From contig DBRK01000035.1 of assembly GCA_002306315.1 (NCBI GenBank), positions 1 to 53,098 of the forward strand: 53,098 nt of DNA, written 5' to 3'. Position numbers and translations under genes: made by a program. The notes beneath the pieces were generated by a model. The model saw only the letters and a program-made list of their open reading frames with translations, ran no database searches and had not been told where the DNA came from. This stretch comes from Patescibacteria group bacterium UBA1370 (GTDB lineage Bacteria > Patescibacteriota > Microgenomatia > UBA1400 > PJMF01). Positions 3,654 through 47,167 of the stretch are shown here, piece after piece; positions within the stretch are counted from its first letter, which is position 1, and each line of letters begins with the position of its first letter.

Positions 3654-4838
3654 ATGATCAAGATAGCTATTGACGGTAACGAGGCCAACATCAGCAATCG
3701 GGTAGGCAGCAATGTTTATGCGTTTGAGTTATTAAGAAGCCTGGAAAAACTGACCCACTCCAACCAAAATATCGATTTTACAGTTTTGCTCCGCCAGCAA
3801 CCAATTACCGACCTGCCCAAAGCCAGGTTGCGATGGAACTATCGGGTAGTTGGTCCCAGTCGGTTATGGACACAATGGGCATTGCCGCTGCATCTTTTCG
3901 CCTATCGTCACCAGTATGATCTCCTGTTCAGTCCCGGTCATTATGCGCCGCATACCTGTCCGGTTCCGTATGTGTCCTCGATCATGGACACTGCTTATTT
4001 AGATTTTCCTGATCATTTCCGCAAGACTGATTTGTTCCAACTGACTTTTTGGACTAAGAGAGCTGTAAAAAATGCTGCCAAAATCGTCGCCATCAGCGAG
4101 GCTACCAAAGCCGATATTGTGCGACATTACCATAAAAAACCACAAGATATTGTGGTTATATACCCTGCGCACACCGTGAAAAGAATAATTTTCACAGAAG
4201 CGGAAAAGAGTAAATTTTTTAAACAAAACCGCATCTCCGAACCCTATATTTTGTTTGTCGGCACCATTCAGCCCCGCAAGAATTTGACCACCCTTGTAGA
4301 AGCTTTTGAGATTTTTACCCGCATGGCCGCCAGCCGTGCCCTAAAAACCAGCCGCCGCACCAGCACCAAAACCTGTTCCGTAGCACCTAAGCTGGTGTTG
4401 GCTGGTAAAACCGGCTGGATGGCTGACAGCACCCTGGAACGAATTGATGCTTCGCCCCTGAAACAACGGATTATCCTGACCGGTTTCGTGACTGAGGCGC
4501 AAAAACAGATGCTCTACAAGAATGCTCTGGCTAGTGTTCTCATCGGCACCCACGAAGGCTTTGGCATTCCGCCGCTGGAATCGTTGGCGCACCGGACGAT
4601 CCCAGTGGTATCAAATACAACTAGTCTGCCAGAGGTGGTGGGAGATGCCGGTTTGCAGGTGGACCCCACCAATGCCCAAGCAGTTGCTGATGCTCTTTGG
4701 CAGGTTTATACTCTGACTGCCCGCGAACGGGCTCTCTACCGCCGCAAGGCCGCAGATCAAGTGAAAAGATTTTCTTGGGATAAGTCAGCGCGCATAGTTC
4801 TCAATACTCTTGAGAGTGTGGCTGCAGATCACAAATGA
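3654..4838 (+). CDS. glycosyltransferase family 4
   Basis: FVGTIQPRKN and HEGFGIPPLESLAHRTIPVVSN motifs; AAGGA Shine-Dalgarno upstream. Confidence 0.8.
   Translation: MIKIAIDGNEANISNRVGSNVYAFELLRSLEKLTHSNQNIDFTVLLRQQPITDLPKARLRWNYRVVGPSRLWTQWALPLHLFAYRHQYDLLFSPGHYAPHTCPVPYVSSIMDTAYLDFPDHFRKTDLFQLTFWTKRAVKNAAKIVAISEATKADIVRHYHKKPQDIVVIYPAHTVKRIIFTEAEKSKFFKQNRISEPYILFVGTIQPRKNLTTLVEAFEIFTRMAASRALKTSRRTSTKTCSVAPKLVLAGKTGWMADSTLERIDASPLKQRIILTGFVTEAQKQMLYKNALASVLIGTHEGFGIPPLESLAHRTIPVVSNTTSLPEVVGDAGLQVDPTNAQAVADALWQVYTLTARERALYRRKAADQVKRFSWDKSARIVLNTLESVAADHK
4176..4195. repeat. perfect palindrome GTGAAAA-gaataa-TTTTCAC (site A of a recurring motif), intragenic
   Basis: Read directly: 4176-4182 GTGAAAA and 4189-4195 TTTTCAC. 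The same arms occur at 12082, 41013 and 47120. Confidence 0.6.
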
Positions 4839-5365
4839 ACAAATTCGCCCCGATAACCATCCTCAGCATCGACCCAGGCTACGACCGGGTGGGCTGGGCT
4901 ATTGGCGAGTTGTCTGGCACTAGCTATCATTTAATCAATTGCGGATGTATCGAAACCAACAACAAAGCTGATATATTTGCCCGCTACATACAAATTCAAG
5001 AAGAACTGGAAGGGATTATCAGCGCCCACCAACCAAAAATCGCCGCTCTAGAGACGCTTTATTTTTCCAAGAACCGCACTACCGCAATCAGAGCCAGTGA
5101 AGCCCGCGGCATCATCATCGCCACGCTTCTGAACCACCAACTTGAGCTCTTTGAATACAATCCCGGGGAAATCAAGCTCGCTGTCACCGGCTATGGCAAT
5201 GCTGATAAAAAAGCCGTGGAAAAAATGGTGCGCATGCAGACTCAAGTCAACCAAAACAAACTTCTCGATGATGCCTTGGATGCGGTGGCCGTCGGCATGA
5301 CACATGCGCTGACATCGCATGCACTCAGAACTAAAGCCGCCCTCAACAAAGCCGCTGGTTCGTAG
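4835..5365 (+). CDS. ruvC: crossover junction endodeoxyribonuclease RuvC
   Basis: ILSIDPGYDRVGWAI N-terminal catalytic Asp motif and C-terminal DDALDAVAVG. ATGA overlap with the upstream gene. Confidence 0.85.
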   Translation: MNKFAPITILSIDPGYDRVGWAIGELSGTSYHLINCGCIETNNKADIFARYIQIQEELEGIISAHQPKIAALETLYFSKNRTTAIRASEARGIIIATLLNHQLELFEYNPGEIKLAVTGYGNADKKAVEKMVRMQTQVNQNKLLDDALDAVAVGMTHALTSHALRTKAALNKAAGS

Positions 5366-5371
5366 TATGCT
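5366..5371 (+). promoter_or_regulatory. -10-like TATGCT, 6 nt before ATG 5378 (leaderless geometry)
   Basis: TATGCT-ttgagt-ATG read directly. Confidence 0.3.
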
Positions 5372-5377
5372 TTGAGT

Positions 5378-5953
5378 ATGTTCGCCTTTCTTTCTGGCAA
5401 ACCAATTGTTCTCCGTGACAGGCTGATTCTCGACGTTAATGGCGTCGGTTACGACGTTGACGTCAGCACCGAGACACTGTCTGAGCTGATCGGCAATGAT
5501 CTTGCCTCCCTTTACATTTACACCTATGTCCGCGAGGATCGCATCGAACTTTATGGTTTTATCACACCGGAAGAAAAAGAGTTGTTCACCTTGCTGTTGG
5601 ATGTATCCGGAGTCGGGCCAAAAACAGCCCTGGCAATTGTCGGCCGGGGCACGCACGCCCTGATAGAGGCAGTGCAGCAAGCTAATGTTTCCTTTTTCAC
5701 CTCTGTTCCCAGAGTGGGCAAGAAATCAGCCCAAAAAATCATCATTGAACTAAAATCCAAACTCGGTGGCATCAAAGATTTGGACCTTGGCCCCAAGACA
5801 CCGCTGGAACAAGACATTGCCGAAGCCCTCACCACACTTGGTTTTTCGGACGCGGATATCAGTTCTGCCATGAGCAGCATGGATACCGAGAATATTTCTC
5901 TGGAACAAGGTGTTCAGCAAGCTATTAAATTGCTTGGATCGGCGAGAAAGTAA
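5378..5953 (+). CDS. ruvA: Holliday junction branch migration complex subunit RuvA
   Basis: MFAFLSGKP...VNGVGYDV OB-fold start and the helix-hairpin-helix motif VSGVGPKTALAI. The track ORF starts at TTG 5372; ATG 5378 is preferred. Confidence 0.85.
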   Translation: MFAFLSGKPIVLRDRLILDVNGVGYDVDVSTETLSELIGNDLASLYIYTYVREDRIELYGFITPEEKELFTLLLDVSGVGPKTALAIVGRGTHALIEAVQQANVSFFTSVPRVGKKSAQKIIIELKSKLGGIKDLDLGPKTPLEQDIAEALTTLGFSDADISSAMSSMDTENISLEQGVQQAIKLLGSARK

Positions 5954-5954
5954 G

Positions 5955-6983
5955 ATGACACTTGATAACAACAACTTAGCTGTTTCGCCAACTCTCAGCC
6001 CGGAAGAGGAGGTGCTTTTTACTTCCCTCCGGGCAAATGATTGGGAAGAATTTTTTGGCCAGGAACAAATTAAACAATCCCTGCGCATTGCTATCAAGGC
6101 TGCCAAACAACGCAGTGAGTCGATGGATCACACGCTCTTGTACGGGCCACCGGGGTTGGGGAAGACGACTTTGTCTCACATTATCGCCAAAGAGTTGGGA
6201 GTTAACATCAAAATTACGTCTGGCACCGCCCTAACAAAAGCCGGAGACCTGGCGGCAATTTTGACAAATTTAGAACCTGGGGACATCTTGTTTGTGGACG
6301 AAATCCACCGCCTGCCCAAAAATGTTGAAGAAACCCTTTATCCGGCCATGGAAGATTTTGCCCTTGATATTGTTATCGGCAAAGGTCCATCAGCCCGGAC
6401 AATCCGCCTGGATTTACCGAAGTTCACCCTGGTCGGGGCGACCACCCGGTTTGGGTTGCTGGCAGGGCCATTTCGAGACCGTTTTGGTTTGATTCACAGG
6501 TTGCAGTACTATCCCCCCGAAACTCTAGCGACGATTATGTTGAAAGCTGCCAAAAAGCTATCCATCAAGGTCACGCCAGAAGCTGCCGAGGAAATCTCCA
6601 AACGCTCCCGTGGCACACCGCGGGTTGCCTTGAAGCTCCTCAAGCGCGTCCGTGATTATGTCCAAGTAGATGGCCGTGACTTGATTGAACCCACCGATGT
6701 TGATCGCGCTCTGGAGATGTTTGCCATCGATAGGATGGGGTTGAGCGACTCGGATCGGCGTTTTCTGGTGCAGATAATAGAAAAACATCATGGTGGTCCG
6801 GTAGGCTTGTCCACGATTGCCGCCACCCTCAATGAAGATGCCCTGACAATTGAGGAAGTGCTCGAACCATACTTGCTGCAAACTGGCTTAATCCAGCGCA
6901 CACCTCAGGGCAGGGTCATCACCAAAGCCGGCTACGAACATGTGGGTTTGCCTTATCCCGAAAGCAAACTCAAAAGAAAATAA
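5955..6983 (+). CDS. ruvB: Holliday junction DNA helicase RuvB
   Basis: Walker [14 protein letters not shown] and Walker [13 protein letters not shown] 5955 directly follows the ruvA stop (5951-5953), whereas the track start at 5910 would overlap ruvA. Confidence 0.9.
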
Positions 6984-7021
6984 CTCAGCGCTTAAGACCG
7001 TTCCTGTTTGCCGTCAAGTTC

Positions 7022-7030
7022 TGCTACAAT
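7022..7030 (+). promoter_or_regulatory. extended -10 TGcTACAAT, 6 nt before ATG 7037 (leaderless geometry)
   Basis: TGCTACAAT-ggctcc-ATG read directly. Confidence 0.4.
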
Positions 7031-7036
7031 GGCTCC

Positions 7037-7648
7037 ATGAGCAGCACATCCTTGACGGGACGCCGATCCCTGCCGGAAAAAATTACTAATCGCCTAGCCA
7101 CAATTTGGCTGGAGGTTGTCACCGGTATTCTTTGGTGGGGGGTAGGGTGGTATCCCTCTCATTTGGTAAGACGATTTTTTTATCGACTGGCCGGCATGAA
7201 AATCGGCCGGGGAAGCACAATCCACATGATGGCAAGAATTTATGATCCCCGGAATATTATTATCGGTGAGGACACTCTGATTGGTGAAAAAGCCACGTTG
7301 GACGGCCGGAGACAGCTTAAAGACTCGCATGGCGGTCTGGAGATCGGCAGCCATGTTGATATCGCTTCCGAGGTCATGATTTGGACCAGTGAACACGATC
7401 TGGCGGATCCGGATATGCGACCAATTGAGGAGAAGGTGGTTATCGAAGATTATGTTTTCATTGGACCCCGGGCGATAATTCTTCCTGGAGTAAGAGTCGG
7501 CAAAGGAGCGGTAGTGGCTGCCGGCGCAGTGGTGACCAAGGACGTTGAGCCTTTTAGTATTGTTGCCGGTGTACCAGCCAAACCAATAGGCACTCGCCAA
7601 AACCAAAACCCTGACTATAAACTCGGCCGGCCACGATTGTTTCAATAA
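7037..7648 (+). CDS. hexapeptide-repeat (left-handed beta-helix) O-acetyltransferase with an N-terminal membrane segment
   Basis: Repeated [LIV]-G-x4 hexapeptide pattern ([46 protein letters not shown]), similar to WcaF/NeuD-type sugar acetyltransferases. Confidence 0.7.
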
Positions 7649-7650
7649 AT

Positions 7651-8679
7651 ATGAAAAAATCCGATTGCATCCTCTCGATGATTATTGTTTCCTACAACAC
7701 CAAAGAGTTGACGTTTGATTGCCTGGATTCCGTGGCCCGTGACCTACGCCGGTCGGTAACACTGTTGCCTGCAACCGAGATGATCGTCATTGACAATAAA
7801 TCAACCGATGGCTCGGTTGAAGCAATTAAACAATTTGCCAAAGAAAATAAAGATATCAAGATCACCTTGATAGAAAATCCCAAAAACACGGGTTTTGCTG
7901 CCGCCAATAATCTGGGCATTGCCAAAGCTAAAGGCCGTTATCTGTTACTCCTTAACTCCGACACCTATGTTCAAGCCGGGGCGCTGGAGCAGCTGGTAAT
8001 GAGTTTCGAAGTCCTTCCACAAGACAACACTTCAAGTGTCCTATCTTCTGAGCCGAGAAAACTCAATAGACTGGGGATCCTGGCTGCCACCTTAATAAAC
8101 AAGGACGGCACCTATCAACCTCAGGGCGGTGGTTTTCCCAACTTGCTGAGCATCATGAATCACATGCTGCTTCTTGATGACCTGCCGCTGATTGGCAAGT
8201 TTTTGCCCTCAACTCAGCACACCGGCCACAACGGCCGGGGTTTTAGTCTAAATGAACCAATTCAGAGCATGGAACTGCGACAGCGGGACTGGGTAGCTGG
8301 CACCGCCATGATGATCCACCGTGAGGTGATTGACGAAATCGGCAACCTGGACGAGCATTTGTTTATGTACGGAGAAGATGTGGAATTTTGCATGCGGGCG
8401 CGTAAACATCACTGGGATATTGCCGAACACCCGGGAGCCAGAATAACCCACTTCCGCAGCCAGAGTTCCTCAAAAACCAATGCTATCGTTGGCGAATTTA
8501 AAGGTTATTATTACATTTGGTCAAAACACAAACCGCTGTGGCAGGAGCCATTTTTGAAATTTTTCTTGCAGGTTGGCGCGCTGCTCAGGAAAACAATTTT
8601 TGGTAAAATTGCCGGCAAAGCAGACTTGGCTGACGCCTACCAGCAAGCCCTTCTAGCCATACCTAGAAACAGGAGATAA
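7651..8679 (+). CDS. glycosyltransferase family 2
   Basis: IIVSYNT, IDNKSTDGS, NTGFAAANNLG and LLNSDT (DxD-type) motifs. Confidence 0.8.
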   Translation: MKKSDCILSMIIVSYNTKELTFDCLDSVARDLRRSVTLLPATEMIVIDNKSTDGSVEAIKQFAKENKDIKITLIENPKNTGFAAANNLGIAKAKGRYLLLLNSDTYVQAGALEQLVMSFEVLPQDNTSSVLSSEPRKLNRLGILAATLINKDGTYQPQGGGFPNLLSIMNHMLLLDDLPLIGKFLPSTQHTGHNGRGFSLNEPIQSMELRQRDWVAGTAMMIHREVIDEIGNLDEHLFMYGEDVEFCMRARKHHWDIAEHPGARITHFRSQSSSKTNAIVGEFKGYYYIWSKHKPLWQEPFLKFFLQVGALLRKTIFGKIAGKADLADAYQQALLAIPRNRR

Positions 8680-8681
8680 AC

Positions 8682-10394
8682 ATGCCCAAAAATCTAAAAA
8701 AAGCTTTAACTTGGTTAGATAATAATATTCTCTTGGTGTTGGGCGGTTTGTTGGTTGCGTTTATACCTTTGTATCCCAAGTTGCCGTTATTTGAGGCAAT
8801 CCCCGGCTATATAGTGAGGGTTAGGTTAGAAGACTTGGTTATTCTCGCCACTGCTTTAATCTGGTTTATACAGCTGCTACGTCGCAAAGTGTCATTCAAA
8901 ACACCTCTGACCCCGTTGATTATCGCCTACGCGGTGGTGGGCTTGCTTTCCACGCTTTCAGCAGTAGTAATCACCAAAACTGTCCCGGTCAGCCCGCTGC
9001 ATATCGGCAAAACTCTGCTGCATTATTTCCGATATCTGGAGTACTTCTCATTGTTTTTTATTCTGTCTTCAGCGGTCAAAAACCGCCGCGACTTGAAGGT
9101 GTTGCTGGTTGTCATGGCTCTGACCCTGGTGGGAGTAGGAATTTACGGTTTCGGCCAAAAATATTACTACTGGCCGGTGTACTCAACCATGAATCGGGAA
9201 TTCAGCAAAGGGGTGAGGTTGTATCTGACCGAGCACGCTCGGGTGCAATCGACCTTTGGTGGCCATTATGATCTAGCCGCCTATTTGGTCATTCTCTTGC
9301 CGCTGCTCTTGGCTTTGTATTACGGCTTAAAGAAAAAATCAGTGAAGTTTTTGGTTTTCGTTGCTTTCTTGCTGGGTTTGTGGTTGTTGGTCACTAGTGC
9401 TTCCCGAACTTCTTTTGCTGCTTTCTTTTTGGGAGCTCTGGCTGTTGTGCTGCTTTTTGCCTGGCAAAGAAAACGCTGGCTGGAGAGAATTGCCTTTACT
9501 GTCACCAGATATGGAGGATTATTGGCAATTTGTTTTCTAATGCTGGTTAGTTTTGGCGATGATATGTACGAACGCCTGTTGCAGGTGCTGGAAGGTTATC
9601 CGGCTGTTTACAAACCATACATGCAAGCAGCCAAGACTGTGAGCGGTACAGTCAATGAGCTGGCGCCGGTGATCAAAGAAATCCCATTCTTTACAGCAGA
9701 AAAACCAGAAAACGGTTTATCTACTGAGGACGCTGAAGTCCTGGTAGCTTCCGACCAGCGGCCAGTTGAGGAAAACCCCAAAGACTTGCCTAGCGACGTC
9801 TATGTGATTGTGCCGGATGTAAAAAAAGTGGCAACTATTTCTGCCACCGGCCAAATTGAAATTATCGAGGTGCAAACTGAGCGCACTTATTCACCGAATG
9901 CTCTAAGGTATGGGTTGTCGCTGGCAATCCGGCTGGATGAACTCTGGCCAAAAGCGCTGAAAGGCTTTTACCGCAATCCGGCGTTAGGCAGCGGTTATGC
10001 CACCCTAACCAAGGACTCAACCATCCACTTTACCGAGGCTGAAAGTACCGATAACAATTACTTGCGGGTATTAGGCGAGACAGGCTTGCTTGGCTTCCTC
10101 ACCTTTTATGGCACTATTGCTGCGGCTATGTATTGGGCGTACCGTCTTTACAAAAAGAACAAGAATAAAAACTTCCTCTACACCGCGCTGGCGGTCGGCT
10201 ACATTGGCGCCAGTGTGGCGCTGCTCTTCAATGCCACTTACATCGATGTTTATGCAGCTTCGAAGGTTGCCCTGACTTATTGGGCGCTGACTGGCATTGT
10301 TTTGGCTGTAGCGATGACAGAGTTGCCGGAGAGTCGGGAGTTCTTAGGCAAGTTCGATCTGGCTCAACTCAAAAAGAAATTATTAAAAAAATGA
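8682..10394 (+). CDS. O-antigen ligase/polymerase-like (Wzy_C domain) polytopic membrane protein
   Basis: About 12 hydrophobic segments, a Wzy_C-like TSASRTSFAAFFLGALAV segment and a large extracytoplasmic loop. AGGAG Shine-Dalgarno upstream. Confidence 0.6.
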   Translation: MPKNLKKALTWLDNNILLVLGGLLVAFIPLYPKLPLFEAIPGYIVRVRLEDLVILATALIWFIQLLRRKVSFKTPLTPLIIAYAVVGLLSTLSAVVITKTVPVSPLHIGKTLLHYFRYLEYFSLFFILSSAVKNRRDLKVLLVVMALTLVGVGIYGFGQKYYYWPVYSTMNREFSKGVRLYLTEHARVQSTFGGHYDLAAYLVILLPLLLALYYGLKKKSVKFLVFVAFLLGLWLLVTSASRTSFAAFFLGALAVVLLFAWQRKRWLERIAFTVTRYGGLLAICFLMLVSFGDDMYERLLQVLEGYPAVYKPYMQAAKTVSGTVNELAPVIKEIPFFTAEKPENGLSTEDAEVLVASDQRPVEENPKDLPSDVYVIVPDVKKVATISATGQIEIIEVQTERTYSPNALRYGLSLAIRLDELWPKALKGFYRNPALGSGYATLTKDSTIHFTEAESTDNNYLRVLGETGLLGFLTFYGTIAAAMYWAYRLYKKNKNKNFLYTALAVGYIGASVALLFNATYIDVYAASKVALTYWALTGIVLAVAMTELPESREFLGKFDLAQLKKKLLKK

Positions 10395-11860
10395 AAAAGT
10401 TTTTAGCCCAGTACGGCTTGATCTCACTGATCGTGGCGGCAGCATTTATTGTTAGGCTGTACCGTATTCACTACCCTTTGCTGGACTGGCATAGTTTCCG
10501 GCAGGCAGATACTGCTTCCGTAACTCGAGAATACGTAAAAAACGGCATTGATCTGTTCAGGCCAACTTATCATGACATCTCCAGCCACCAAAGCGGCCTG
10601 GATAATCCCAGCGGCTACCGGATGGTGGAATTTCCAATTATTAATGGCTTGACGGCGCTGATTTTGAGAACATTCCCGGCTTTGCCGTTGGTGCCGACCA
10701 TTCGTATGTTGTCCATCATCTTTTCTATGGGTACTTTATTGTCTATTTTTTGCTTGGCAAAATCTCTGTCAGGCAAAAAGGTTGCCCATCTAGCTACTCT
10801 AACTTTTGCTCTGCTGCCTTATTCGATTTACTACACCAGGACTATTTTGCCAGAGATACCGTTGATATTTTTCTCGACTTTTTCCTTGGCAGCTTTTGTT
10901 AGCTGGCTGCGAAATAATGACGGGCGATGGTATATCCTGTCGGTATTAAGCCTAGCCCTGGCATTCCTGCTAAAACCATTTGTCGGCTTTTTGGCTCCGG
11001 TATATTTAGTATTGGTTTGGCAAAAGCAGGGCAGAAGAGCCTTGTTCAATATCCGTTATTATCTCTACGTGCTTATTGCGGTAGCACCCTTGGTGGCCTG
11101 GAGATACTGGATTACTCAATTTCCAGAGGGCATTCCGGCCTCTAAATGGCTGTTAAATGGCAACGGCATTCGTCTGCGCCCCGCTTGGTTTAGATGGCTC
11201 GGATATGAGCGTCTCACCAAATTGATGCTGGGTTACACAGGCATCGTATTCATACCAGCTGCTTTTGATCGAGTTGCCAAAGACACCTGGGTTTACCTTT
11301 CGTGGTGGCTGGGAATTGGCTTATACTTCATCGTCATCGCTACAGGAAATGTTCAGCACGATTATTACCAGATCCTGGCTTTGCCAATCCTCAGCATCAC
11401 GGTTGGCAAAGGAGTGCTCAATGCATATGAAATTGTCAAAAACAACTGGGGAAAACTAAAGGACAACCTTAAAATATACGGCCATCCGCTTTCTTTGGTC
11501 ACAATAGCCTGCATCTATGCTGTCATGCTGATACTAGCCTGGCAGCAAGTTAAAGGCTTTTTCAATGTGAACAATTGGGAATATGTCAGGGCCGGACAAG
11601 TAGTCGCTCAACGCACACCAGAAGATGCCAAAATAATCGCCCCCCTGATGTCAAACACAGCGTTTCTCTTTCAAACTGAGCGCAAAGGTTGGCCGATCGG
11701 CGGGGATATTGAAGAAAAAATCGAAAAGGGTGCCACGCATTACGTCACCACCATCAGAGACAAGGAAGCGCAGGAACTGGCAAGAAAGTACTTAATCCTT
11801 GAGCAAACAGATGAATATTTGATCATTGATCTGACCAAGAGGCGAGAGGAAACACCATGA
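10391..11860 (+). CDS. GT-C fold membrane glycosyltransferase (ArnT/PMT family, GT39/GT83-like)
   Basis: MKKFLAQYGLISLIVAAAFIVRLYRIHYPLLDWHSFRQADTASVTREY is a typical first TM plus periplasmic loop for this family. ATG 10391 overlaps the upstream stop (ATGA). The track start at 10280 lies inside the upstream gene. Confidence 0.6.
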   Translation: MKKFLAQYGLISLIVAAAFIVRLYRIHYPLLDWHSFRQADTASVTREYVKNGIDLFRPTYHDISSHQSGLDNPSGYRMVEFPIINGLTALILRTFPALPLVPTIRMLSIIFSMGTLLSIFCLAKSLSGKKVAHLATLTFALLPYSIYYTRTILPEIPLIFFSTFSLAAFVSWLRNNDGRWYILSVLSLALAFLLKPFVGFLAPVYLVLVWQKQGRRALFNIRYYLYVLIAVAPLVAWRYWITQFPEGIPASKWLLNGNGIRLRPAWFRWLGYERLTKLMLGYTGIVFIPAAFDRVAKDTWVYLSWWLGIGLYFIVIATGNVQHDYYQILALPILSITVGKGVLNAYEIVKNNWGKLKDNLKIYGHPLSLVTIACIYAVMLILAWQQVKGFFNVNNWEYVRAGQVVAQRTPEDAKIIAPLMSNTAFLFQTERKGWPIGGDIEEKIEKGATHYVTTIRDKEAQELARKYLILEQTDEYLIIDLTKRREETP

Positions 11861-13047
11861 AAGTCCTGATGTTGACCCCCTACCTGCCATATCCTCTCTT
11901 GTCTGGTGGTCAGATCCGTACTTACAACCTGCTGAAAAAGCTTTCCAAGCATCACGAGATTACTCTCTTTGCTCTCATAAAGGAAGAGGAGGAGAAGCAA
12001 TATATTCCCGAGCTGGAAAAGTATTGCGCTTCTGTCAGGGTCTTTAAACGTTCCAGCAAACCTTTTACCTTGGGCAATATTGTGAAAACTGGTTTTTCAC
12101 GCTACCCATTTTTGGTGATGCGCAACTATGTGCCAGGAGCCGTCAGGGCAATTCGGGAGGAGTTGGACAAGGGAAAGTACGACCTCATTCACGCTGAAAC
12201 CTTTTACATGATGCCACACATCCCGGCCTCTCCAATCCCGGTGATTTTAGTTGAGCAAACAATTGAATACCTGGGATATGAAAGTTTTGCCTCAAGAGCT
12301 AATCTCCTGCTTAAACCTCTCCTTTACTATGACATCAAGAAAATCCGCCGTTGGGAGACTCATTACTGGAATCTGTGCCACACTCTGATTGCTATGAGTG
12401 AAGATGATCGCCGTTATTTGGCGGCTCGCGTCAATGACCCTGACAAAGTCAAAGTTGTCGAAAACGGTGTCGATACCGACTGGTTCATGCAAAAACAGCG
12501 CCAAGAAACAGACAAACCAACTCTGCTGTCCGTGGGTACTTTCAAATGGCTGCCCAACGTAGAAGCAGTTGACTTTTTAGTACAAAAAATCTGGGGATTG
12601 GTCAAAGAAAAACTTCCAGATGCCAGGCTGCTTATCGTCGGCAACGCCCCAACCAAAAAAGTTCTGGGCTACCAGAACTCCGACAGCAGTATTCAGGTTT
12701 TAGGCAGGGTTGATGACATTCGTGATTACTTTAGCCAAGCCCATGTCTTAGTGGCACCAGTATTTAGCGGCAAGGGCACTCGCTATAAGATACTGGAAGC
12801 TATGGCTTCAGGCACACCGGTTGTTGCCACCAGTGTGGCCGTGGAAGGCTTGGGTGTTAAAGGCGGCAAACATGTTTTGATCAGCGATACCGCCCAGGGA
12901 ATGGCAGACGCAATTGTGCAACTGATTAGCGACAGCAGCAAACGCCGTCAACTTGCGGAATCCGGACGTGAGTTTGTCCGCAAAAACTACGATTGGTCTC
13001 TGATTTCCAAAAAACTTGATACAATTTACCAGAGCATCAATCGCTAG
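11857..13047 (+). CDS. glycosyltransferase family 4
   Basis: MKVLMLTPYLPYPLLSGGQIR N-terminus and GTRYKILEAMASGTPVVAT C-terminal motif. Confidence 0.8.
   Translation: MKVLMLTPYLPYPLLSGGQIRTYNLLKKLSKHHEITLFALIKEEEEKQYIPELEKYCASVRVFKRSSKPFTLGNIVKTGFSRYPFLVMRNYVPGAVRAIREELDKGKYDLIHAETFYMMPHIPASPIPVILVEQTIEYLGYESFASRANLLLKPLLYYDIKKIRRWETHYWNLCHTLIAMSEDDRRYLAARVNDPDKVKVVENGVDTDWFMQKQRQETDKPTLLSVGTFKWLPNVEAVDFLVQKIWGLVKEKLPDARLLIVGNAPTKKVLGYQNSDSSIQVLGRVDDIRDYFSQAHVLVAPVFSGKGTRYKILEAMASGTPVVATSVAVEGLGVKGGKHVLISDTAQGMADAIVQLISDSSKRRQLAESGREFVRKNYDWSLISKKLDTIYQSINR
12082..12100. repeat. perfect palindrome GTGAAAA-ctggt-TTTTCAC (site B), intragenic
   Basis: Read directly: 12082-12088 GTGAAAA and 12094-12100 TTTTCAC. 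Confidence 0.6.
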
Positions 13048-13060: not shown

Positions 13061-13933
13061 ATGAGTAATATCGATTTGGAAATTATCATTACCACCTTTA
13101 ACAGCGAATTTTGGCTGAAAAAAACCTTGTCCACACTGAAGCAATACTACCTGGACAAAACCAGGCTTAATGTCAAAGTCACAGTTGTAGACAACAATTC
13201 CGAGGACAACACTCTAACCATGATTCGCCGGTCATTCCGCTGGGTCGACCTGATTGAGCTCAGCGATAATCATGGCTTTGCTTTTGCTAACAATCGGGCT
13301 TTAGAAAAAACTTCAGCCCGCTATATCATGCTCCTCAACTCAGATGTCGAGTTCAACCAACATTCCAACCTGGACGAGTTAATTAATTATCTGGAAAAGC
13401 ATCCGCGGGTTGGAATCATCTCACCGCGTGTGGAGTTTACTGATGGCACCATTGACCCAGCCTGCCATCGAGGCGAACCCACTCTGTGGGCTAGCGCCAC
13501 TTACTTTGCCAATCTCGAATATTGGTTTCCTGAAAGCCAGCTTTTTGGCCAGTATCACCAATACTACAAAGACCTAAACTCCATCCACACCGTTGATGCC
13601 GTCTCCGGCGCGGCTCTGGTTGCCCGCAAAGAAGCTATTGATGAGGTGGGTCTGTTGGATGAACAGTTCTTCATGTATGCCGAAGACTTGGATTGGTGTA
13701 AGCGCTTCCGGGAAAAAGGCTGGGAAGTTGTCTACAATCCAGAGGTCAGACTGATTCATCATAAAAATAAATCAGGCATCAAAAGTTCGTCACAGAAAAT
13801 AGCTAAAAAAACCAGAAAACATTTTTATATCACCATGTTACAATATTATGATAAGCATTATAAAAATCTATATCCTCAGTTCCTGAGGAATTTAGTCAGG
13901 TACATATTAATTGCTAAAAAAGGAGCGATCTAA
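13061..13933 (+). CDS. glycosyltransferase family 2
   Basis: MSNIDLEIIITTFNS, VVDNNSEDNT, NHGFAFANNRA and LLNSDV motifs. ATG 13061 is preferred over the overlapping upstream track start at 13016. Confidence 0.75.
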   Translation: MSNIDLEIIITTFNSEFWLKKTLSTLKQYYLDKTRLNVKVTVVDNNSEDNTLTMIRRSFRWVDLIELSDNHGFAFANNRALEKTSARYIMLLNSDVEFNQHSNLDELINYLEKHPRVGIISPRVEFTDGTIDPACHRGEPTLWASATYFANLEYWFPESQLFGQYHQYYKDLNSIHTVDAVSGAALVARKEAIDEVGLLDEQFFMYAEDLDWCKRFREKGWEVVYNPEVRLIHHKNKSGIKSSSQKIAKKTRKHFYITMLQYYDKHYKNLYPQFLRNLVRYILIAKKGAI

Positions 13934-16794: not shown

Positions 16795-17897
16795 TGAGCT
16801 TCCTTGACCATACATACGCAATTGTCCTAGCCGGAGGCGGCGGCACTCGTCTTTGGCCAAAATCACGCAAACAGTCGCCAAAACAGTTTTTACGCTTGAT
16901 AGGCAAAGATACCTTGCTCCAGGTAACCGTATCTAGAATCAATAAGCTTGTCCCCTCCGAGCGGATTATTATCGTTACCAACCAACTTTATCGTGATGAG
17001 GTAGTCAGCCTACTGCCAGAGGTGCCGAGCGATAACATTATCGCCGAACCGGAAAAGCGCGATACTGCACTTGCCATGCTGACTGGCGCGCTCTATGCCC
17101 GAAGCAAAGATCCTGAGGCAGTGGTCATCAACTGCGCCAGCGACCACGTGGTCACTAATGAGTCTGAATTCATCCGGGTAATGAAAGCAGCCGCCGAGGT
17201 AGCCAATGACAACGACTATCTGGTGGCAGTGGGCATTACCCCAACCTTTCCGTCCACAGGTTTTGGCTATATCAAAATCGGCGATGACCTGAAAAAACTT
17301 GACCGAGGCCTTTCACTCTTCAAAGTCGAAAGCTTCACTGAAAAACCTAATGAGGCAACGGCCAGAGCTTTCATCTCCACCGGCAAGTACTTCTGGAACG
17401 CTAATATGTACGTCTGGAGAGCTAAAGTTCTAGTTGAAGCGTTCCAAAAACATCATCCGGAGCTGTTGGAATCAGCCAACAAATTGCTCGACCTCAAAGG
17501 TGAGGACTTCATCGGCCATCTTCCTGACGTCTACAAGGACGCCCAAGCTATTTCGATTGACTATGCTATTTCAGAAAAAGCAGACAACCTGGTGCTCATT
17601 CCGGGCGACTTTGGCTGGAATGACGTCGGTGATTGGAGGGTGGTCTATGACCTGGAAACCAAGGATTTGTCGGGAAATGTGGTCCTTGGCGAGGGCTCAG
17701 AGGTGCACGCGCTTTCTATCGAATCCCACAACAATCTTATTCATACCAATGGCAGATTGGTGGCGCTGGTAGGCATCAATGACCTGGTCGTCATCGACAC
17801 CGATGAAATCCTGATGATTTGCCCGAAAAATAAAACTCAGGAAGTAAAACGCCTGGTTGATAGACTTAAGGAAGAAAAGAGACAAGAATACCTCTGA
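16794..17897 (+). CDS. manC: mannose-1-phosphate guanylyltransferase (NTP-transferase domain only, no C-terminal cupin)
   Basis: AIVLAGGGGTRLWPKSR signature and FGYIK. Length 367 aa. Confidence 0.8.
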   Translation: MSFLDHTYAIVLAGGGGTRLWPKSRKQSPKQFLRLIGKDTLLQVTVSRINKLVPSERIIIVTNQLYRDEVVSLLPEVPSDNIIAEPEKRDTALAMLTGALYARSKDPEAVVINCASDHVVTNESEFIRVMKAAAEVANDNDYLVAVGITPTFPSTGFGYIKIGDDLKKLDRGLSLFKVESFTEKPNEATARAFISTGKYFWNANMYVWRAKVLVEAFQKHHPELLESANKLLDLKGEDFIGHLPDVYKDAQAISIDYAISEKADNLVLIPGDFGWNDVGDWRVVYDLETKDLSGNVVLGEGSEVHALSIESHNNLIHTNGRLVALVGINDLVVIDTDEILMICPKNKTQEVKRLVDRLKEEKRQEYL

Positions 17898-22857: not shown

Positions 22858-22902
22858 TTGTTTTTGTTGCAATCTAACTCCAGACAAGCAATAATCTACA
22901 CT

Positions 22903-23703
22903 ATGAATAAAAAATTCCTCGCTATAGGCGGTGTTATCTTGGCCTTACTGATAGTTGGCGGCATCTTTGCCTACAACCAGTTCACCAAGCCCGCTGCCGA
23001 CACCCAAACCAACAATAAGAAAAAGATAGCTGAGCCGCTCAATGTTATCCCCGTGGCTGAGCGTCCCTATATGCAGATCTCACCTGTTGCAGATGGCAGA
23101 AATATCCAAATTATTGTCAAAGAAGTAAAAAAGCCTGCTGAAAGCGTTGACTATGAGTTGGAATATCAGGCTGGTACACTTTTGCAAGGTATTTTTGGCA
23201 CGCTGCAACTGAGTAATTTGCCTGCTAGCGTAACAGAATTGATGGGCAGCTGCAGTGCCGGGGGAGCTTGTGCCTACCACGAGGATGTTAAAGGCGGCAC
23301 TCTCCTAACCAGATTTTCCGGTCCGGAAAATTATGCTCTGAAATCTGACTGGAAATATATCGATAATTCAACCAGGGAAACAGAGTTCGCCTCCAAAGAC
23401 TCCAAATTCCAGCTCACCTCTGCCAGCCTGGCTAACCAGAGGTATCTGGTTATCTTCAACACTGCCGGCTATCCGGAGGGCTTGGAAGGAAACCCAGTCT
23501 CAGATCCTTATTCTTTGGCTGTATCCTCCGCGTTGAGCGGCAAGGGCACTCTCACCATGAGAGCAAATGAGGATGGCGAGCTAAAGATCATGGGTTGGAA
23601 TGGCAGCGAGTGGATCAACTTTGGCGGCGAGGTAAGTGCCGAGGATTCCAAGATGGTCTCAGCTGAAGTAGATTTGGTTGAACTCTATATTGTCGTCAAA
23701 TAA
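22903..23703 (+). CDS. hypothetical N-terminally membrane-anchored extracytoplasmic protein
   Basis: MNKKFLAIGGVILALLIVGGIFAY anchor. I recognise no family. ATG 22903 is preferred over TTG 22858. Confidence 0.5.
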   Translation: MNKKFLAIGGVILALLIVGGIFAYNQFTKPAADTQTNNKKKIAEPLNVIPVAERPYMQISPVADGRNIQIIVKEVKKPAESVDYELEYQAGTLLQGIFGTLQLSNLPASVTELMGSCSAGGACAYHEDVKGGTLLTRFSGPENYALKSDWKYIDNSTRETEFASKDSKFQLTSASLANQRYLVIFNTAGYPEGLEGNPVSDPYSLAVSSALSGKGTLTMRANEDGELKIMGWNGSEWINFGGEVSAEDSKMVSAEVDLVELYIVVK

Positions 23704-28608: not shown

Positions 28609-29616
28609 ATGAGCACACCTCAAACAGTGACTATGGGCGGCGGCACCGGCACATTCGCGGTCATCTCTGCCTTAAAAAAACTGCCAGTAAAAATTTCCAC
28701 AGTCATTGCGGTTTCTGATTCCGGCGGTTCGACCGGTAGAATCCGAGACGAGTTTGGTTTTCCCCCTGTCGGTGACTTGCGGCAATCCTTAGCTGCATTA
28801 GCTGAGCCGGAGAGCCAAGAATGGATTCGCAAAATTCTTCTTTATCGCTTTGATAAGGGAGAGGGATTGCGGGGTCATAACCTCGGCAACCTGATTCTGA
28901 CTGCGCTTCAGGATATGACAGAAGGCGACACCACTCGAGCACTAGAGATAGCCGAAAGCGTATTTGATCTGCAGGGCAAGGTCATTCCTGTAACAGCCGA
29001 AAATGTTGAACTGGTTATCTATTATGCCAACGGTACCAAGGTAGTTGGTGAACACATCCTGGATGAGACGGGTGATAATCCTAAAAAAGTTGCTAGGATT
29101 GAATTAACGCCGGCAGCTACACTCAATTCGGTGGCAGCGGACGCGTTGGCTAAAGCAAACCTGATTATCATTGGACCAGGCGACTACTATGCCAGCCTGA
29201 TGGCAACTCTAGTAGTAGAGGGAATTAGCGAGGTTTTTGCAAAAACTCAAGCCAAGATTGTCTACATCACCAACCTGATGACCAGAAGAACCCAAACACA
29301 TGGGATGACAGCTGCTGATCATCTCCGAGGCATTGAAAACCAGATTGGGAGAAAAGTGGATCGAATCCTCATCAACAATGAATTCATACCTGAGGAGATT
29401 ATCAATGCCTATGCTGCTGAGGACGAGTATCCAGTTGTTGATGACTTAACTAGTGATGAAAGGGTTTTACGTTTGCCGTTGATCAGGACTACAATAGTGC
29501 AAAAAGCTGCTGAGGACACTGCCTACAGGTCGCTTTTGCGTCATGATGAGGACAAGCTGCGAGCAGCGCTGCAACAGCTGCTGTCAGAAATAAAGGAAAG
29601 CCATGGAAATTCTTAA
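28609..29616 (+). CDS. yvcK: YvcK/GlmR-family protein (UPF0052, CofD-like fold)
   Basis: MGGGTGTFAVISALKK N-terminal glycine loop, VSDSGGSTGRIRDE, and DLRQSLAAL (the family DhRNCL-type motif). Confidence 0.75.
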   Translation: MSTPQTVTMGGGTGTFAVISALKKLPVKISTVIAVSDSGGSTGRIRDEFGFPPVGDLRQSLAALAEPESQEWIRKILLYRFDKGEGLRGHNLGNLILTALQDMTEGDTTRALEIAESVFDLQGKVIPVTAENVELVIYYANGTKVVGEHILDETGDNPKKVARIELTPAATLNSVAADALAKANLIIIGPGDYYASLMATLVVEGISEVFAKTQAKIVYITNLMTRRTQTHGMTAADHLRGIENQIGRKVDRILINNEFIPEEIINAYAAEDEYPVVDDLTSDERVLRLPLIRTTIVQKAAEDTAYRSLLRHDEDKLRAALQQLLSEIKESHGNS

Positions 29617-38868: not shown

Positions 38869-40197
38869 ATGGCACTTGTAAAACCTACCAATACCACCTT
38901 CGCGAAAATTAAAGTTATTGGTGTCGGTGGCGGTGGTGGCAACGCCGTCAACTCGATGATTGCCTCCAACAAAATCAACGGCGTTGAATTTATTGCCGTT
39001 AACACCGATGCCCAAGCTCTGCTGACTTCCCGAGCCGAAACCAAACTGCAGATCGGCAGCAATTTCACCAAAGGCCTCGGTTCCGGAGCGGATCCTGAAG
39101 TTGGCCGTACTGCCGCCGAGGAATCCTACGAAAAACTCCGCGACCTGCTTTTTGACACTGACATGGTATTTTTGACTGCCGGCATGGGCGGCGGCACCGG
39201 CACCGGTGCCTCACCCATCATCGCCGAGATTGCCAAAGAAACCGGCGCCCTGACCGTGGCAGTGGTCACCAAACCATTTGCCTTTGAGGGCATCCGGCGG
39301 ATGCAGACAGCTGAGGAAGGCATTGCCTTGCTCAAAGACAGCGTCGACACCCTGATTGTCATCCCCAATCAACGCCTCATGGAAGTCGTAGACAAGAAAA
39401 TGCCTTTCCTAGACGCCTTTAAGCTGGCGGATAATGTCCTCGGCCAAGGTGTCCAAGGCATTTCCGACTTGATCACTGTGCCCGGTTTAATCAATGTTGA
39501 CTTTGCCGACGTCAAAACCATCATGACCGAGTCTGGCTCAGCCCTGATGGGCATCGGCGAAGCCAGCGGCGAAAACCGCGCCGCCACAGCTGCCCGGATG
39601 GCAGTTTCTTCACCCCTGCTTGAGGTTTCTATCGATGGTGCAAAAGGCATCCTCTACAATATCATTGGCGGTCCAGACATGACCATGAGCGAGGTGTCTG
39701 ACGCTTCGGCGATTATTTCTCAAGCTGCCGACCCGGATGCCAACATTATCTTTGGGGCTACCATCAACGAAGAAATGGGTTCCAACATCAAAATCAGTGT
39801 CATTGCCACCGGGTTCGATGACCGGCAAATGGGTTATGGCGCCTCCACCAGGCCATTGTTCGGTGCCTATTCCCGCGAGTCGCAACTGAAACTCCGCAAC
39901 CAACAACGCCAGGAGGAGCGCCGCGCTGAAGAACAGCCTGCAGGTTCGCCCCTGATTGATAGGGCGCCCGGCAGCTTCACCCAACCCCTAACCACCAGTC
40001 AAATTCAAAGCACCACCCCCACGCAACCGTTTGTAAAATCCCAAGCGTTTGGTGATGATGTCAGCAACACCACCCCGGCAGCAGATGACATCGACGATGA
40101 TGAGGCCAGCACATCCGACAATGGCCATTCCGACATCAACCCTTCAGAGTTCGAGGATGAGTTCGAGATTCCGGCCTTCATGAGGAAACGGCGCTAA
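38869..40197 (+). CDS. ftsZ: cell division GTPase FtsZ
   Basis: [11 protein letters not shown], the tubulin signature GGTGTGA, a long low-complexity linker and a C-terminal peptide [12 protein letters not shown]. Confidence 0.95.
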
Positions 40198-40721
40198 TCT
40201 TTTCCAAGAATATTTACCCGCAGTCGATACAACCGATCCAAAAACTCTCTAAAACCGTACAGATCGCTGTAAGTCATACCCAGGCTGTTTTGGATGTCGA
40301 CAACTCTCCGGCTGATGCTTTCCAAGGCTTGTATATCACTTTTAGTTAATAATCCTTCTAGATAATTCCGTTCAATTTGAAGTAATGAACGGCCATCAAT
40401 TAAAAACTGCTGCATGATTAGATGCTTTCTCATACCCAGATATTTGTTAATGATTTGCTCAGACAACTCGGCAATTCTGATTTTTCCGGCAATAGCCAGC
40501 AGATAGAGTTTTGCACCCAACTCCTGTGTTTCCAGAGAATGTCTGCCTCTAAGCACACCAATGTCGGTGACAAGCAAGAGTTTATGCATTCTCTCAACAA
40601 TTTCATAAGCTTTTTGCAAAGAAATTCCTTCCTTGCCGAGAGCTTCTGCGGTGAAGGCTTCGTCAAGACTTTTTGGTGCCGGCTCTTTTTTCCTGAAAAA
40701 TCTTTTAAATACTTCTGACAT
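40194..40721 (-). CDS. hypothetical all-helical 175-aa protein, convergent with ftsZ
   Basis: The only long ORF here. I recognise no motif. Its stop codon overlaps the ftsZ stop (CTAA at 40194-40197). Confidence 0.5.
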
Positions 40722-40781
40722 CTTAATAATGCTTCCAAGCCAAAGTCACAGATTGATTATAACCTGTTATTCTCACTCCTA

Positions 40782-40790
40782 TGCTATAAT
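40782..40790 (+). promoter_or_regulatory. extended -10 TGcTATAAT driving the ileS T-box leader
   Basis: Read directly. Confidence 0.45.
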
Positions 40791-40796
40791 TAAGAG

Positions 40797-41004
40797 GCAA
40801 CAGCGTTTGAGCCAGGCAATCACCCGGCGAGCTGGCCGCAGAAATGCCGCCTAGGCAAAGTAGATCGGTCCGGGTAAGCCCGTAATAGCTGGAACGAAGC
40901 GCGGCAACGCAAATAGACTCACAGCCGCGGAAAAGAGGTGGTACCGCCGAAATGAAGGCCCTCTTGTGGACAGCACCAACAGCTGTTTGCAAGAGGGCTT
41001 TTTT
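40797..41004 (+). promoter_or_regulatory. T-box riboswitch leader (tRNA-Ile sensing, transcription attenuation type)
   Basis: AGAGGUGGUACCGCCG at 40934-40949 matches the T-box consensus. The antiterminator has a 7-nt UGGUACC bulge. A mutually exclusive terminator follows. There is a long Stem I-like hairpin at 40803-40902 with Ile codons in its internal loop. ileS lies downstream. Confidence 0.8.
40956..41004 (+). terminator. intrinsic terminator of the T-box leader
   Basis: AGGCCCTCTTG (40956-40966) pairs with CAAGAGGGCTT (40990-41000), with an inner ACAGC/GCTGT helix, followed by a TTTTTT run (40999-41004). Confidence 0.8.
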
Positions 41005-41010
41005 GAAATT

Positions 41011-41084
41011 CCGTGAAAACAACACATTTCACGGTGCCCGCCTGGTATTAGACGCGTGAAAACAGCGTGAAAAATCGTGAAAAG
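41011..41084 (+). repeat. cluster of five CGTGAAAA-type motif copies (one inverted pair plus three tandem direct copies at 10-11 bp spacing)
   Basis: CCGTGAAA(41011-18)-N8-TTTCACGG(41027-34), then CGTGAAAAC at 41055, CGTGAAAAA at 41066 and CGTGAAAAG at 41076. Read directly. Confidence 0.6.
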
Positions 41085-41094
41085 CAAAGGAAAA

Positions 41095-45231: not shown

Positions 45232-45543
45232 ATGTACGCGATTATTTCGCTCGCCGGCAAACAATACCGGGTAGAAAAGGGCACAAAATTAACTGTTGAC
45301 CGCCTCAACGCTGAAGAGGGGAAAAACATCACAGTCAACGAAGTGCTTTTTGCCAGTGATGGCAAAAAAGTCAGCGTCGGCACCCCAGTGCTCGATAAAG
45401 CCAGTGTTATCCTAAAGGTACTGGAACACGGCCAAGACAAAAAAATCAGAGTTGCTACTTACAAAGCCAAGTCTCGATACCGGAAAGTCAAAGGCCACCG
45501 GCAGCAAATCACTTCCGTTGAGGTAACCGATATCAAAGCTTAA
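45232..45543 (+). CDS. rplU: 50S ribosomal protein L21
   Basis: MYAIISLAGKQYRVEKG start and KVLEHGQDKKIRVATYKAKSRYRKVKGHRQ. Confidence 0.9.
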   Translation: MYAIISLAGKQYRVEKGTKLTVDRLNAEEGKNITVNEVLFASDGKKVSVGTPVLDKASVILKVLEHGQDKKIRVATYKAKSRYRKVKGHRQQITSVEVTDIKA

Positions 45544-45567
45544 TGGCAACTAATTAATTAGACGGTT

Positions 45568-45584
45568 GTACGGCCAAGCCGTAC
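45568..45584 (+). other. 7-bp hairpin GTACGGC-caa-GCCGTAC between rplU and the next gene
   Basis: Perfect inverted repeat read directly, followed by GTTTAT and then ATG 45591. No clear U-run and no Shine-Dalgarno. Confidence 0.25.
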
Positions 45585-45590
45585 GTTTAT

Positions 45591-46766: not shown

Positions 46767-46798
46767 AATCAGGTTGCCCAAAAACAAAGAAAGTAAAT

Positions 46799-47056: not shown

Positions 47057-47076
47057 GCAAAACACATTTGATCTTG

Positions 47077-47100
47077 ACAGCACCTCCGGGTGCTGTTTTT
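47077..47100 (+). terminator. rho-independent terminator after rpmA
   Basis: ACAGCACC-tccg-GGTGCTGT followed by TTTTT. Confidence 0.75.
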
Positions 47101-47119
47101 GATTCTCCTTTTTCAGGCC

Positions 47120-47158: not shown

Positions 47159-47167
47159 TGATATACT
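47159..47167 (+). promoter_or_regulatory. extended -10 TGaTATACT, 9 nt before ATG 47177
   Basis: Read directly. Confidence 0.4.

Follow-up and report, generated by a model that had tools for sequence, protein, structure and literature searches.

Four everted repeats in the window

The window, that is, the whole analysed stretch of 53,098 nt from an uncultured Patescibacteria (CPR) bacterium, contains four inverted repeats with closely similar arms, designated A to D and given here without strand. Site A (cGTGAAAA-gaataa-TTTTCACa; 4175–4196, core 4176–4195) is a perfect 7+7 everted repeat inside a GT4 gene (3654–4838), where its product, VKRIIFT, is part of a variable linker. Site B (tGTGAAAA-ctggt-TTTTCACg; 12081–12101, core 12082–12100), also a perfect 7+7 everted repeat, lies inside another GT4 gene (11857–13047) and encodes VKTGFSR in a conserved peptide. 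In its own register, site C is a perfect 8+8 everted repeat with an N8 spacer (CCGTGAAA-acaacaca-TTTCACGG; 41011–41034); in the register of A and B it has one mismatch (GTGAAAA caacac ATTTCAC; 41013–41032). Site D (CCGTGAAAA-ctcga-TTTCCAC; 47118–47138, 7-mer core 47120–47138) likewise has one mismatch and is only a 10-mer match with a degenerate arm.

The positions of the four sites, the perfect arms of A and B and the one-mismatch copies C and D had been given in a preliminary description and were all recovered here. Its manual list, offered as possibly incomplete, lacked nothing at this level, as no fifth site was found in the window at ≤1 mismatch with spacers of 3–10. The claimed pairing of the sites beyond their arms held for A and C (16 of 20 positions), whereas B and D matched at 16 of 19 positions rather than 15 of 19. 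Two features had been missed: three direct CGTGAAAA repeats at 41054–41083, and an extra outer C/G on five of the eight arms of A–D, giving CGTGAAAA. No further site and no parS were found in 15 kb of additional flanking DNA from the same species.

The window's densest half-site cluster was the ileS leader. A T-box leader was located at 40797–41005 (forward strand) by a weak Rfam match with a short stem I; tRNA alone was found at the gathering threshold, and the weak T-box match came from an E-value search of 40600–41200. The T-box terminator consists of a stem (40958–40966 / 40990–40998) and a subsequent U tract, and site C lies downstream of it. GCGTGAAAACA-type half-sites, repeated directly three times with a period of 10–11 (41054–41083, forward strand), form a TRF-detectable tandem array that immediately precedes the ribosome-binding site of ileS and its ATG at 41095. 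Site C and the direct repeats together make up a ~70-nt lineage-specific insertion, and the C region was the only one inserted relative to the relatives.

An orphan parB and its DNA-contact residues

The candidate binding protein is encoded by parB (47177–48016, forward strand) and has ParB_N and HTH_ParB domains and a GERRWRAAQ box. It is an orphan parB, with no parA in the 68 kb examined. Site D lies between the rpmA terminator (47076–47097) and the parB −10 box TATACT (47162–47167), at the expected −35 position. It is 39–57 bp upstream of parB, while C is ~6 kb upstream and A and B are 35–43 kb away. GTGAAA as a −35 element in its own right was rejected, since both orientations occur and the distance from the −10 box varies.

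In the window ParB, S and V take the place of the DNA-contact residues R173 and Q162 (Caulobacter numbering), respectively. R173 hydrogen-bonds guanine 1 of parS and has been reported to be absolutely conserved (PMC7383237). It was missing in 35 of 35 ParB orthologues of the clade, which retained N178, G201 and R204. The loss of R173 across the clade fits a half-site with a position 1 other than G. At positions 173, 179, 184 and 201, the window ParB carries S, T, T and G, respectively.

The half-site and known ParB systems

The half-site (C)GTGAAAA = TTTTCAC(G), which extends to CGTGAAAA, has seven contiguous bases (TTTCACG) in common with canonical parS TGTTTCACGTGAAACA; the resemblance to parS claimed in the preliminary description was borne out. 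The outer C/G accompanied 7 of the 10 perfect GTGAAAA/TTTTCAC 7-mers within A–D or the direct repeats; among the 14 isolated GTGAAAA words, a single one had it. The search for a canonical parS that had been suggested returned none in the window at ≤3 mismatches and none in the 15-kb flanks at ≤4. Likewise, no 16-bp parS palindrome was present within 68 kb, even with 3 mismatches allowed.

The sites share with canonical parS (TGTTNCACGTGAAACA) the TTTCACG core, the frequent intragenic position and, at least for D and C, apparently the nearness to parB. However, the arms of parS meet head to head without a spacer, whereas the halves of A–D are turned outward around 5–6 bp, which sets them apart from canonical parS. 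Everted half-sites 13–14 bp apart cannot be bound in the mode in which a ParB dimer binds parS.

In P. aeruginosa, ParB binds half-parS heptamers (GTTTCAC/GTTCCAC) and dimerisation is not needed (PMC10419367). These half-parS sites occur in genes and intergenic DNA and serve to hold ParB on the nucleoid or exert mild local regulation (PMC10419367, PMC5961200). The units described here are similar in that each roughly corresponds to one parS arm and that they are scattered across genes and intergenic DNA. TTTTCAC is identical to the heptamer at 6 of 7 positions (the TTTCAC core, then G as in parS), and the second arm of D, TTTCCAC, matches GTTCCAC at 6 of 7. In contrast, the P. aeruginosa sites are singletons with G at position 1 of the arm, whereas the window has fixed everted pairs (5–6 bp spacer) and tandem arrays in which TTTTCAC(G) has T at position 1.

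The Noc-binding site NBS (ATTTCCCGGGAAAT) is a ParB-family site that diverged from parS via changes of residue 173, and such sites are scattered within genes. The window has in common with it a ParB-family protein altered at 173 and sites within genes. A–D are nevertheless unlike the NBS palindrome, and Noc has Q173, K179, K184 and R201 (QKKR), in contrast to the residues of the window ParB. CRP/FNR-type operators have the consensus TGTGA-N6-TCACA; this candidate was rejected, as GTGA and TCAC are 11–12 bp apart here and do not have that spacing.

Statistical tests of the four-site set

Perfect 7+7 inverted repeats with a spacer of 5–6 numbered 14, several of them nested, compared with 7.8–9.4 in Markov shuffles. 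An arm common to two perfect inverted repeats had a probability of 0.006–0.034 in such shuffles, and two perfect repeats with a common arm were found in 2 of 35 natural pseudo-windows made from relatives. The preliminary description had held the set to be non-random and had named a shuffle or Markov-model test that could show otherwise. The test placed the set beyond expectation: no 7-mer arm had two perfect and two near copies (≤1 mismatch) in any of the shuffles (1000 per Markov order, with orders 1, 3 and 5). Because no shuffle gave such a combination, the four-site set is unusual, at roughly p = 1e-3. When the spacer was relaxed to 4–8, the rate of an arm with two perfect and two near copies was ≤0.004 in shuffles. 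Moreover, synonymous-codon resampling with all proteins kept gave an expectation of 0.0225 perfect sites, with two or more in 0 of 400 runs. The 16-position pattern CGTGAAAA-N5-6-TTTTCACG, at up to 3 mismatches, retrieved A–D only, with scores of 1, 1, 1 and 2. GTGAAAA itself, with 24 copies in 53 kb, was not an abundant word and was no outlier among k-mers under order-2 or maximal-order Markov expectation, and the idea of an uptake sequence or abundant word was rejected.

Peptide constraint and conservation of the sites

The view that the palindromes do not derive from a shared peptide was borne out. The codon phases differ as had been described (A, GTG AAA AGA ATA ATT TTC ACA; B, GTG AAA ACT GGT TTT TCA CGC), the peptide at site A is a variable linker, and there is no indel. 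At site B, the inner AAAA-N5-TTTT is dictated by the conserved K-T-x-F-S-R peptide. A miniature mobile or REP-like element was rejected, since A and B are in frame, and neither the 19 homologues compared nor the closest orthologues differ from them by an indel.

Conservation in orthologous genes, which had been named as a test of the sites, spoke against them, as the closest relative had none of the four. This relative (GCA_964455555.1) is fully syntenic, and its ParB is 80% identical with the same DNA-contact residues and an identical ISKSSAFVSNT.RLL recognition region; the 38 kb examined contained no half-site pairs and no parS. All four sites were kept in 20 same-species contigs (99.6–99.99% identical), a conservation that has no power because only ~0.05 SNPs are expected per site. 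A metagenome scan with a GT4 protein as the query yielded nothing useful.

The half-site in other Patescibacteria

Among 30 non-redundant Patescibacteria lineages, GTGAAA/TTTCAC occurred upstream of parB in 14, compared with 2.8 expected (p = 1.2e-7), and ranked second in hexamer enrichment there, with only the −10 box higher. In either orientation, the motif preceded the parB start codon by 30–85 nt. In the 200 nt that precede parB, the 7-mer reached 1.61/kb, compared with an overall density of 0.145/kb, and a second peak was seen at the ileS leader; because sampling of the relatives covered only ±10 kb around ileS or parB, the nearness to parB is partly a sampling effect. TTTCACG was not over-represented in total in the relatives (128 vs 120), but it was clustered, with 9 pairs within 40 bp versus 0.74 ± 0.81 expected. 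These data support a tie of the half-site to parB and the ileS leader across the clade.

The everted arrangement was found in this species alone, and the relatives had direct repeats, canonical parS or a palindrome with an expanded centre. Specifically, in the lineage L076 a perfect canonical parS follows the T-box terminator of ileS and precedes the start of the gene, a position that corresponds to the window's densest cluster. The ileS leader of L031 contained four half-sites, including TTTCACGCGTGAAA, and in L024 the same expanded palindrome, TTTCACGCGTGAAA, was located 37 nt upstream of parB. In the Gottesmanbacteria-like group, a 22-bp direct GTGAAAA repeat around a TTGACA box was rejected; it was left out as independent evidence because it lies inside the conserved FVKNVIDRCEN coding sequence of a methyltransferase gene.

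Possible functions of the sites

We tentatively regard A–D as lineage-specific ParB-bound half-parS pairs, a reading that is quite possible rather than probable. The four everted and the three direct ileS repeats would be arrays built from a half-site of parS origin, (C)GTGAAAA = TTTTCAC(G), and the orphan chromosomal ParB (47177–48016) would bind these arrays with one DNA-binding domain per half-site. This mode of binding would be nearer to that of the P. aeruginosa half-parS sites than to that of the canonical 16-bp parS. At site D, ParB may be seated on its own promoter, and sites A–C may give the parB-proximal region additional points of anchoring or nucleation. Both ParB as the binding protein of A–D and any role of the two intragenic sites are what we infer from the DNA and protein sequences.

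Alternatively, A–D may have no common function and may reflect coincidence and local repeat growth, which we consider somewhat unlikely. A and B would then have arisen by chance in codon choice and D as a chance near-match, while the C region would be a lineage-specific insertion enlarged by duplications, both tandem and inverted, of an 11-bp unit. The lack of all four sites in the closest syntenic relative, the partly peptide-dictated site B, the detection of the C repeats by TRF as a tandem array and the 15-kb flanks free of extra sites are all consistent with such an origin. Moreover, the pattern was chosen in the preliminary description among many possible ones, and two perfect repeats with a common arm occurred in 0.6–3.4% of Markov shuffles and in 2 of the 35 pseudo-windows. 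However, two perfect plus two near copies occurred in none of the 3000 shuffles, the flanking C/G is common to the sites though it was not used to select them, and other lineages independently show enrichment and clustering of the half-site near parB and ileS.

Operators of a non-ParB transcription factor that reads GTGAAA-type half-sites, controlling parB, ileS and possibly internal promoters of the glycosyltransferase cluster, are unlikely. The position of D at the expected −35 region of parB, the motif 30–85 nt before the parB start codon of relatives in either orientation and the direct repeats with a period of 10–11 bp, which is typical of operator arrays, would suit this explanation. It leaves the seven-base identity to parS and the canonical parS at the equivalent position in the L076 ileS leader unexplained; two of the four sites are deep within genes, and no candidate regulator gene was found beside the sites; the adjacent ORFs at 40194–40721 and 22858–23703, of no assigned function, have no DNA-binding domain. 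RNA hairpins acting in mRNAs as attenuators, stabilisers or processing sites are very improbable. Although A and C fold at −6.7 and −9.7 kcal/mol (z-scores of −5.5 and −3.5 against shuffled controls) and C lies within a 5′ leader, D, which at −2.2 kcal/mol does not exceed its shuffles, fails to fold, B is marginal and the stems are A-U-rich, so that A–D do not share a terminator-like or other structured-RNA hairpin. Pairing also explains neither the direct repeats nor the conservation of the half-site across differing arrangements. DnaA boxes or another replication-origin signal can be given hardly any credence: TTTTCACA resembles the relaxed consensus TTWTNCACA, and the right arm of D, ATTTCCACA, is one mismatch from it, but exact TTWTNCACA matches numbered 7 versus 5.6 expected with none at A–D, and 8 of 10 half-sites end in CACG, not CACA. 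The GC skew of the window was flat and thus uninformative on the position of oriC, neither it nor gene orientation pointed to an origin in the window, and dnaA lies outside the DNA covered.

The binding of half-parS pairs by ParB could be part of a wider pattern, which is a more doubtful proposition. ParB of the clade would lack the contact of R173 with guanine 1, and canonical parS would have been mostly replaced by modular TTTCACG half-site arrays. The arrangements (everted pairs, direct repeats, expanded-centre palindromes and occasionally canonical parS) would be interchangeable, with fast turnover between species. This would amount to a centromere, or ParB-anchoring, architecture without a fixed palindrome. 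Both parS and the ParB residues recognising it are considered to be conserved in nearly all bacteria, and chromosome segregation in this phylum is almost entirely uncharacterised. If a large uncultured clade pairs an R173-less ParB with flexible arrays, it would show a centromere rebuilt from a half-site and how ParB loading handles non-palindromic targets. Even if the sites are coincidental, the clade-wide loss of R173 and the half-site clusters near parB would be worth a look. Covariation of residue 173 with motif variants was rejected as a diagnostic, since the residue varies among the ParB proteins of the clade and L076, with T in its place, has a canonical parS nonetheless.

Everted repeats in the window

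All four everted repeats of the preliminary description were recovered exactly at their coordinates, with correct codon phases for sites A and B. Site A (4176-4195, GTGAAAA-gaataa-TTTTCAC) encodes VKRIIFT, without an indel, in a linker that varies within a well-conserved GT4, and site B (12082-12100, GTGAAAA-ctggt-TTTTCAC) encodes VKTGFSR in a conserved GT4 segment. Site C (41013-41032), in the ileS leader 3' of the T-box terminator, has one mismatch as a 7+7 repeat; its natural register is a perfect 8+8 palindrome, CCGTGAAA-N8-TTTCACGG (41011-41034). Site D (47120-47138, GTGAAAA-ctcga-TTTCCAC) is flanked by the rpmA terminator (47076-47097) and the -10 box of parB, at the expected place of the parB -35 element. 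The likeness of A to C outside the arms (16 of 20 positions) was as described, and B does pair with D, at 16 rather than 15 of 19 positions. No further GTGAAAA/TTTTCAC everted site was found in the window at up to one mismatch with spacers of 3-10. Three GCGTGAAAACA-type units in direct repeat (41054-41083), directly 5' of the ileS start codon at 41095, had been overlooked, as had the fact that the arms are often one base longer (CGTGAAAA). The extra C was present on 7 of the 10 perfect 7-mers of sites A-D and the direct repeats, versus 1 of 14 isolated GTGAAAA words. The 16-position pattern CGTGAAAA-N5-6-TTTTCACG, with up to three mismatches, retrieved A-D only (scores 1, 1, 1 and 2).

A single 7+7 hairpin is ordinary: 14 perfect ones with a spacer of 5-6, several nested, were present in the window, versus 8-9 in Markov shuffles. 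An arm common to two perfect repeats, taken alone, is weak evidence, occurring in 0.6-3.4% of Markov-1, -2, -3 and -5 shuffles and in 2 of 35 natural pseudo-windows made from related genomes. A single arm with two perfect and two one-mismatch copies appeared in 0 of 1000 shuffles at each of orders 1, 3 and 5, and in at most 0.4% when spacers of 4-8 were permitted; among the natural pseudo-windows, two perfect and two near copies were found for AT-only arms alone. When synonymous codons were resampled with all proteins kept, 0.0225 perfect sites were expected per window, and 0 of 400 runs had two. The claim that the set is improbable was thereby borne out: it is real and statistically unusual in both shuffles and codon resampling, and we estimate a window-level p of ~1e-3, which is not overwhelming given that the pattern was chosen by eye. 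The word GTGAAAA was no frequency outlier in the window, indicating that it is not an abundant uptake-type word.

Comparison with the closest relative and same-species strains

A second protein search identified a closer relative, GCA_964455555.1, with identical gene order (ParB 80% identical, GT4-B 76%, GT4-A 61-62%). Conservation in orthologous genes, the check suggested initially, failed for all four sites (0/4). In its ileS leader the terminator almost abuts the start codon, which makes the C cluster an insertion of ~70 nt confined to the lineage of the window. Part of the parB promoter (gtacaaa...acattttgNtatact) is conserved, and site D is missing. The codons orthologous to site A are unrelated; those orthologous to site B read TTT AAA ACT GCA TTT TCC AGA, so a conserved K-T-x-F-S-R peptide yields the inner AAAA-N5-TTTT as a by-product, and what the window adds is limited to GTG and ...A C... 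Neither half-site pairs nor parS were found in 38 kb of this genome, despite the same ParB DNA-contact residues. Same-species strains keep all four sites, which carries no weight because they are 99.6-99.99% identical; 15 kb of extra same-species sequence held no additional everted site.

Half-sites around parB and ileS in related lineages

The ileS...parB gene order is kept in ~35 related lineages. GTGAAA/TTTCAC occurred upstream of parB in 14 of 30 non-redundant regions versus 2.8 expected (p = 1.2e-7), often as direct repeats 9-11 bp apart, and in an unbiased hexamer ranking of these regions it came second, after the -10 box only. Over the 200 nt upstream of parB the density of CGTGAAA/TTTCACG was 1.61/kb, versus 0.145/kb overall, with a second peak in the ileS leader. 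Across 923 kb of relatives this word was not over-represented (128 versus 120 expected) but clustered, with 9 pairs within 40 bp versus 0.74 +/- 0.81 in Markov-4 shuffles. Some clustered pairs fall within genes: the related locus L063 has two direct pairs of TTTTCACGG half-sites, 10-12 bp apart, inside its ileS and ftsW (L063:12284-12310 and 13220-13245), 2.6-3.5 kb upstream of its parB.

In a related MAG (L076:9898-9913, JBGTEY010000013), a perfect canonical parS, TGTTTCACGTGAAACA, follows the ileS T-box terminator and precedes the ileS start codon; no second perfect parS occurs in the related loci (~1.1 Mb), nearly all of which have parB within 10 kb. The L031 ileS leader carries four half-sites, among them TTTCACGCGTGAAA (L031:9841-9854), an expanded-centre palindrome of two abutting TTTCACG half-sites that recurs with up to one mismatch in three lineages, including L024 (16649-16662, 37 nt upstream of parB) and L059 (2272-2285). 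Taken with the parB-upstream enrichment and the clustering, the L076 parS and these palindromes show one half-site, TTTCACG, an uninterrupted 7-base stretch of parS, returning around parB and ileS in different layouts. Of the lineages compared, the window's species alone has it in everted form.

The ParB protein

By sequence, the window ParB (47177-48016, plus strand) is a standard chromosomal ParB (E ~1e-47 to Caulobacter, Thermus and Bacillus structures); no parA was found in the 68 kb examined. R173 (Caulobacter numbering), which hydrogen-bonds guanine 1 of parS, was reported to be absolutely conserved in ~1,800 ParBs (Jalal et al.; PMC7383237). The window ParB has Ser (ISKSSAFVSNTMRLL) aligned to R173 and Val at Q162, and all 35 Patescibacteria orthologues examined (L011-L064, L076, L104; region of window ParB residues ~118-165) lack both. 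Position 173 is variable among them (S, T, V, G, L, Q, I, E, A, P, K, D), and N178, G201 and R204 are kept in the clade. The loss of R173 fits a half-site with T or a variable base, not G, at position 1; it is not diagnostic, since L076 also lacks R173 yet has a canonical parS. P. aeruginosa ParB occupies hundreds of half-parS heptamers, for which dimerisation is not needed (PMC10419367). For CPR bacteria, our literature search returned no work on ParB or parS.

Interpretation of the repeats

The proposed "inside-out parS" gained independent support from relatives for its half-site as well as for C and D, and lost ground in that the sites themselves are species-specific. With ParB as the putative binder, it is the best available explanation, and ParB-bound half-parS arrays are our leading, if tentative, candidate. 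The two perfect intragenic copies, A and B, may be coincidental. Coincidence combined with local duplication as the origin of the whole set is somewhat less likely: the lineage-specific C cluster and the peptide at site B are compatible with it, and the shuffles and codon resampling speak against it. A different transcription factor is conceivable, given the promoter position of D and of the equivalent motifs in relatives; we consider such a regulator less likely again, as no candidate gene was found next to the sites and the identity to parS would be left unexplained. All other readings together are very improbable. For the RNA-hairpin reading, folding was modest at A and C, marginal at B and absent at D. 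DnaA boxes gave seven exact matches versus 5.6 expected; none of these falls on a site, and the half-sites have CACG, not CACA, as their ending. Mobile elements were rejected since sites A and B are without indels, and the spacing does not fit a CRP/FNR operator.

Gene context

The host is an uncultured Patescibacteria (CPR) bacterium, and the closest IleS matches (55-69% identical) are from Patescibacteria MAGs. The window encodes a glycosylation cluster with ruvCAB inside, recO, a dcw cluster up to ftsZ, T-box-regulated ileS, ftsW, rplU, a methyltransferase, rpmA and parB, with a signal peptidase gene on the opposite strand. A CofD/YvcK-family gene (28609-29616) is embedded among the Mur ligase genes of the dcw cluster. 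The ileS T-box leader (40797-41005) has a very short stem I and scores only 27.8 bits, where the Rfam gathering score is 93, but its T-box sequence, GGUGGUACCGC, is clear and a terminator is present; relatives have the same compact form. At 45232-47056, the UPF0020-type methyltransferase gene (391 aa) lies between rplU (L21) and rpmA (L27), an order kept clade-wide. A Gottesmanbacteria-like group carries a consensus TTGACA-17-TATACT promoter for rpmA-parB in the methyltransferase 3' end (L035:15485-15513).

NBS-like matches to ATTTCCCGGGAAAT with up to three mismatches occupied 11 window positions (e.g. 17665-17678 and 44264-44277) versus 3.8 +/- 2.0 after dinucleotide shuffling, where a single shuffle out of 100 reached 11. 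In many relatives, too, TAATTTCCC stands immediately 3' of the rpmA stop codon. To the right of window position 53098, the same-species strains L004, L006 and L007 (past locus position ~15950) differ in an inserted block adjoining flavodoxin and tRNA genes. This block contains unknown 208-aa and 237-aa genes, the latter present twice in opposite orientation in some strains.
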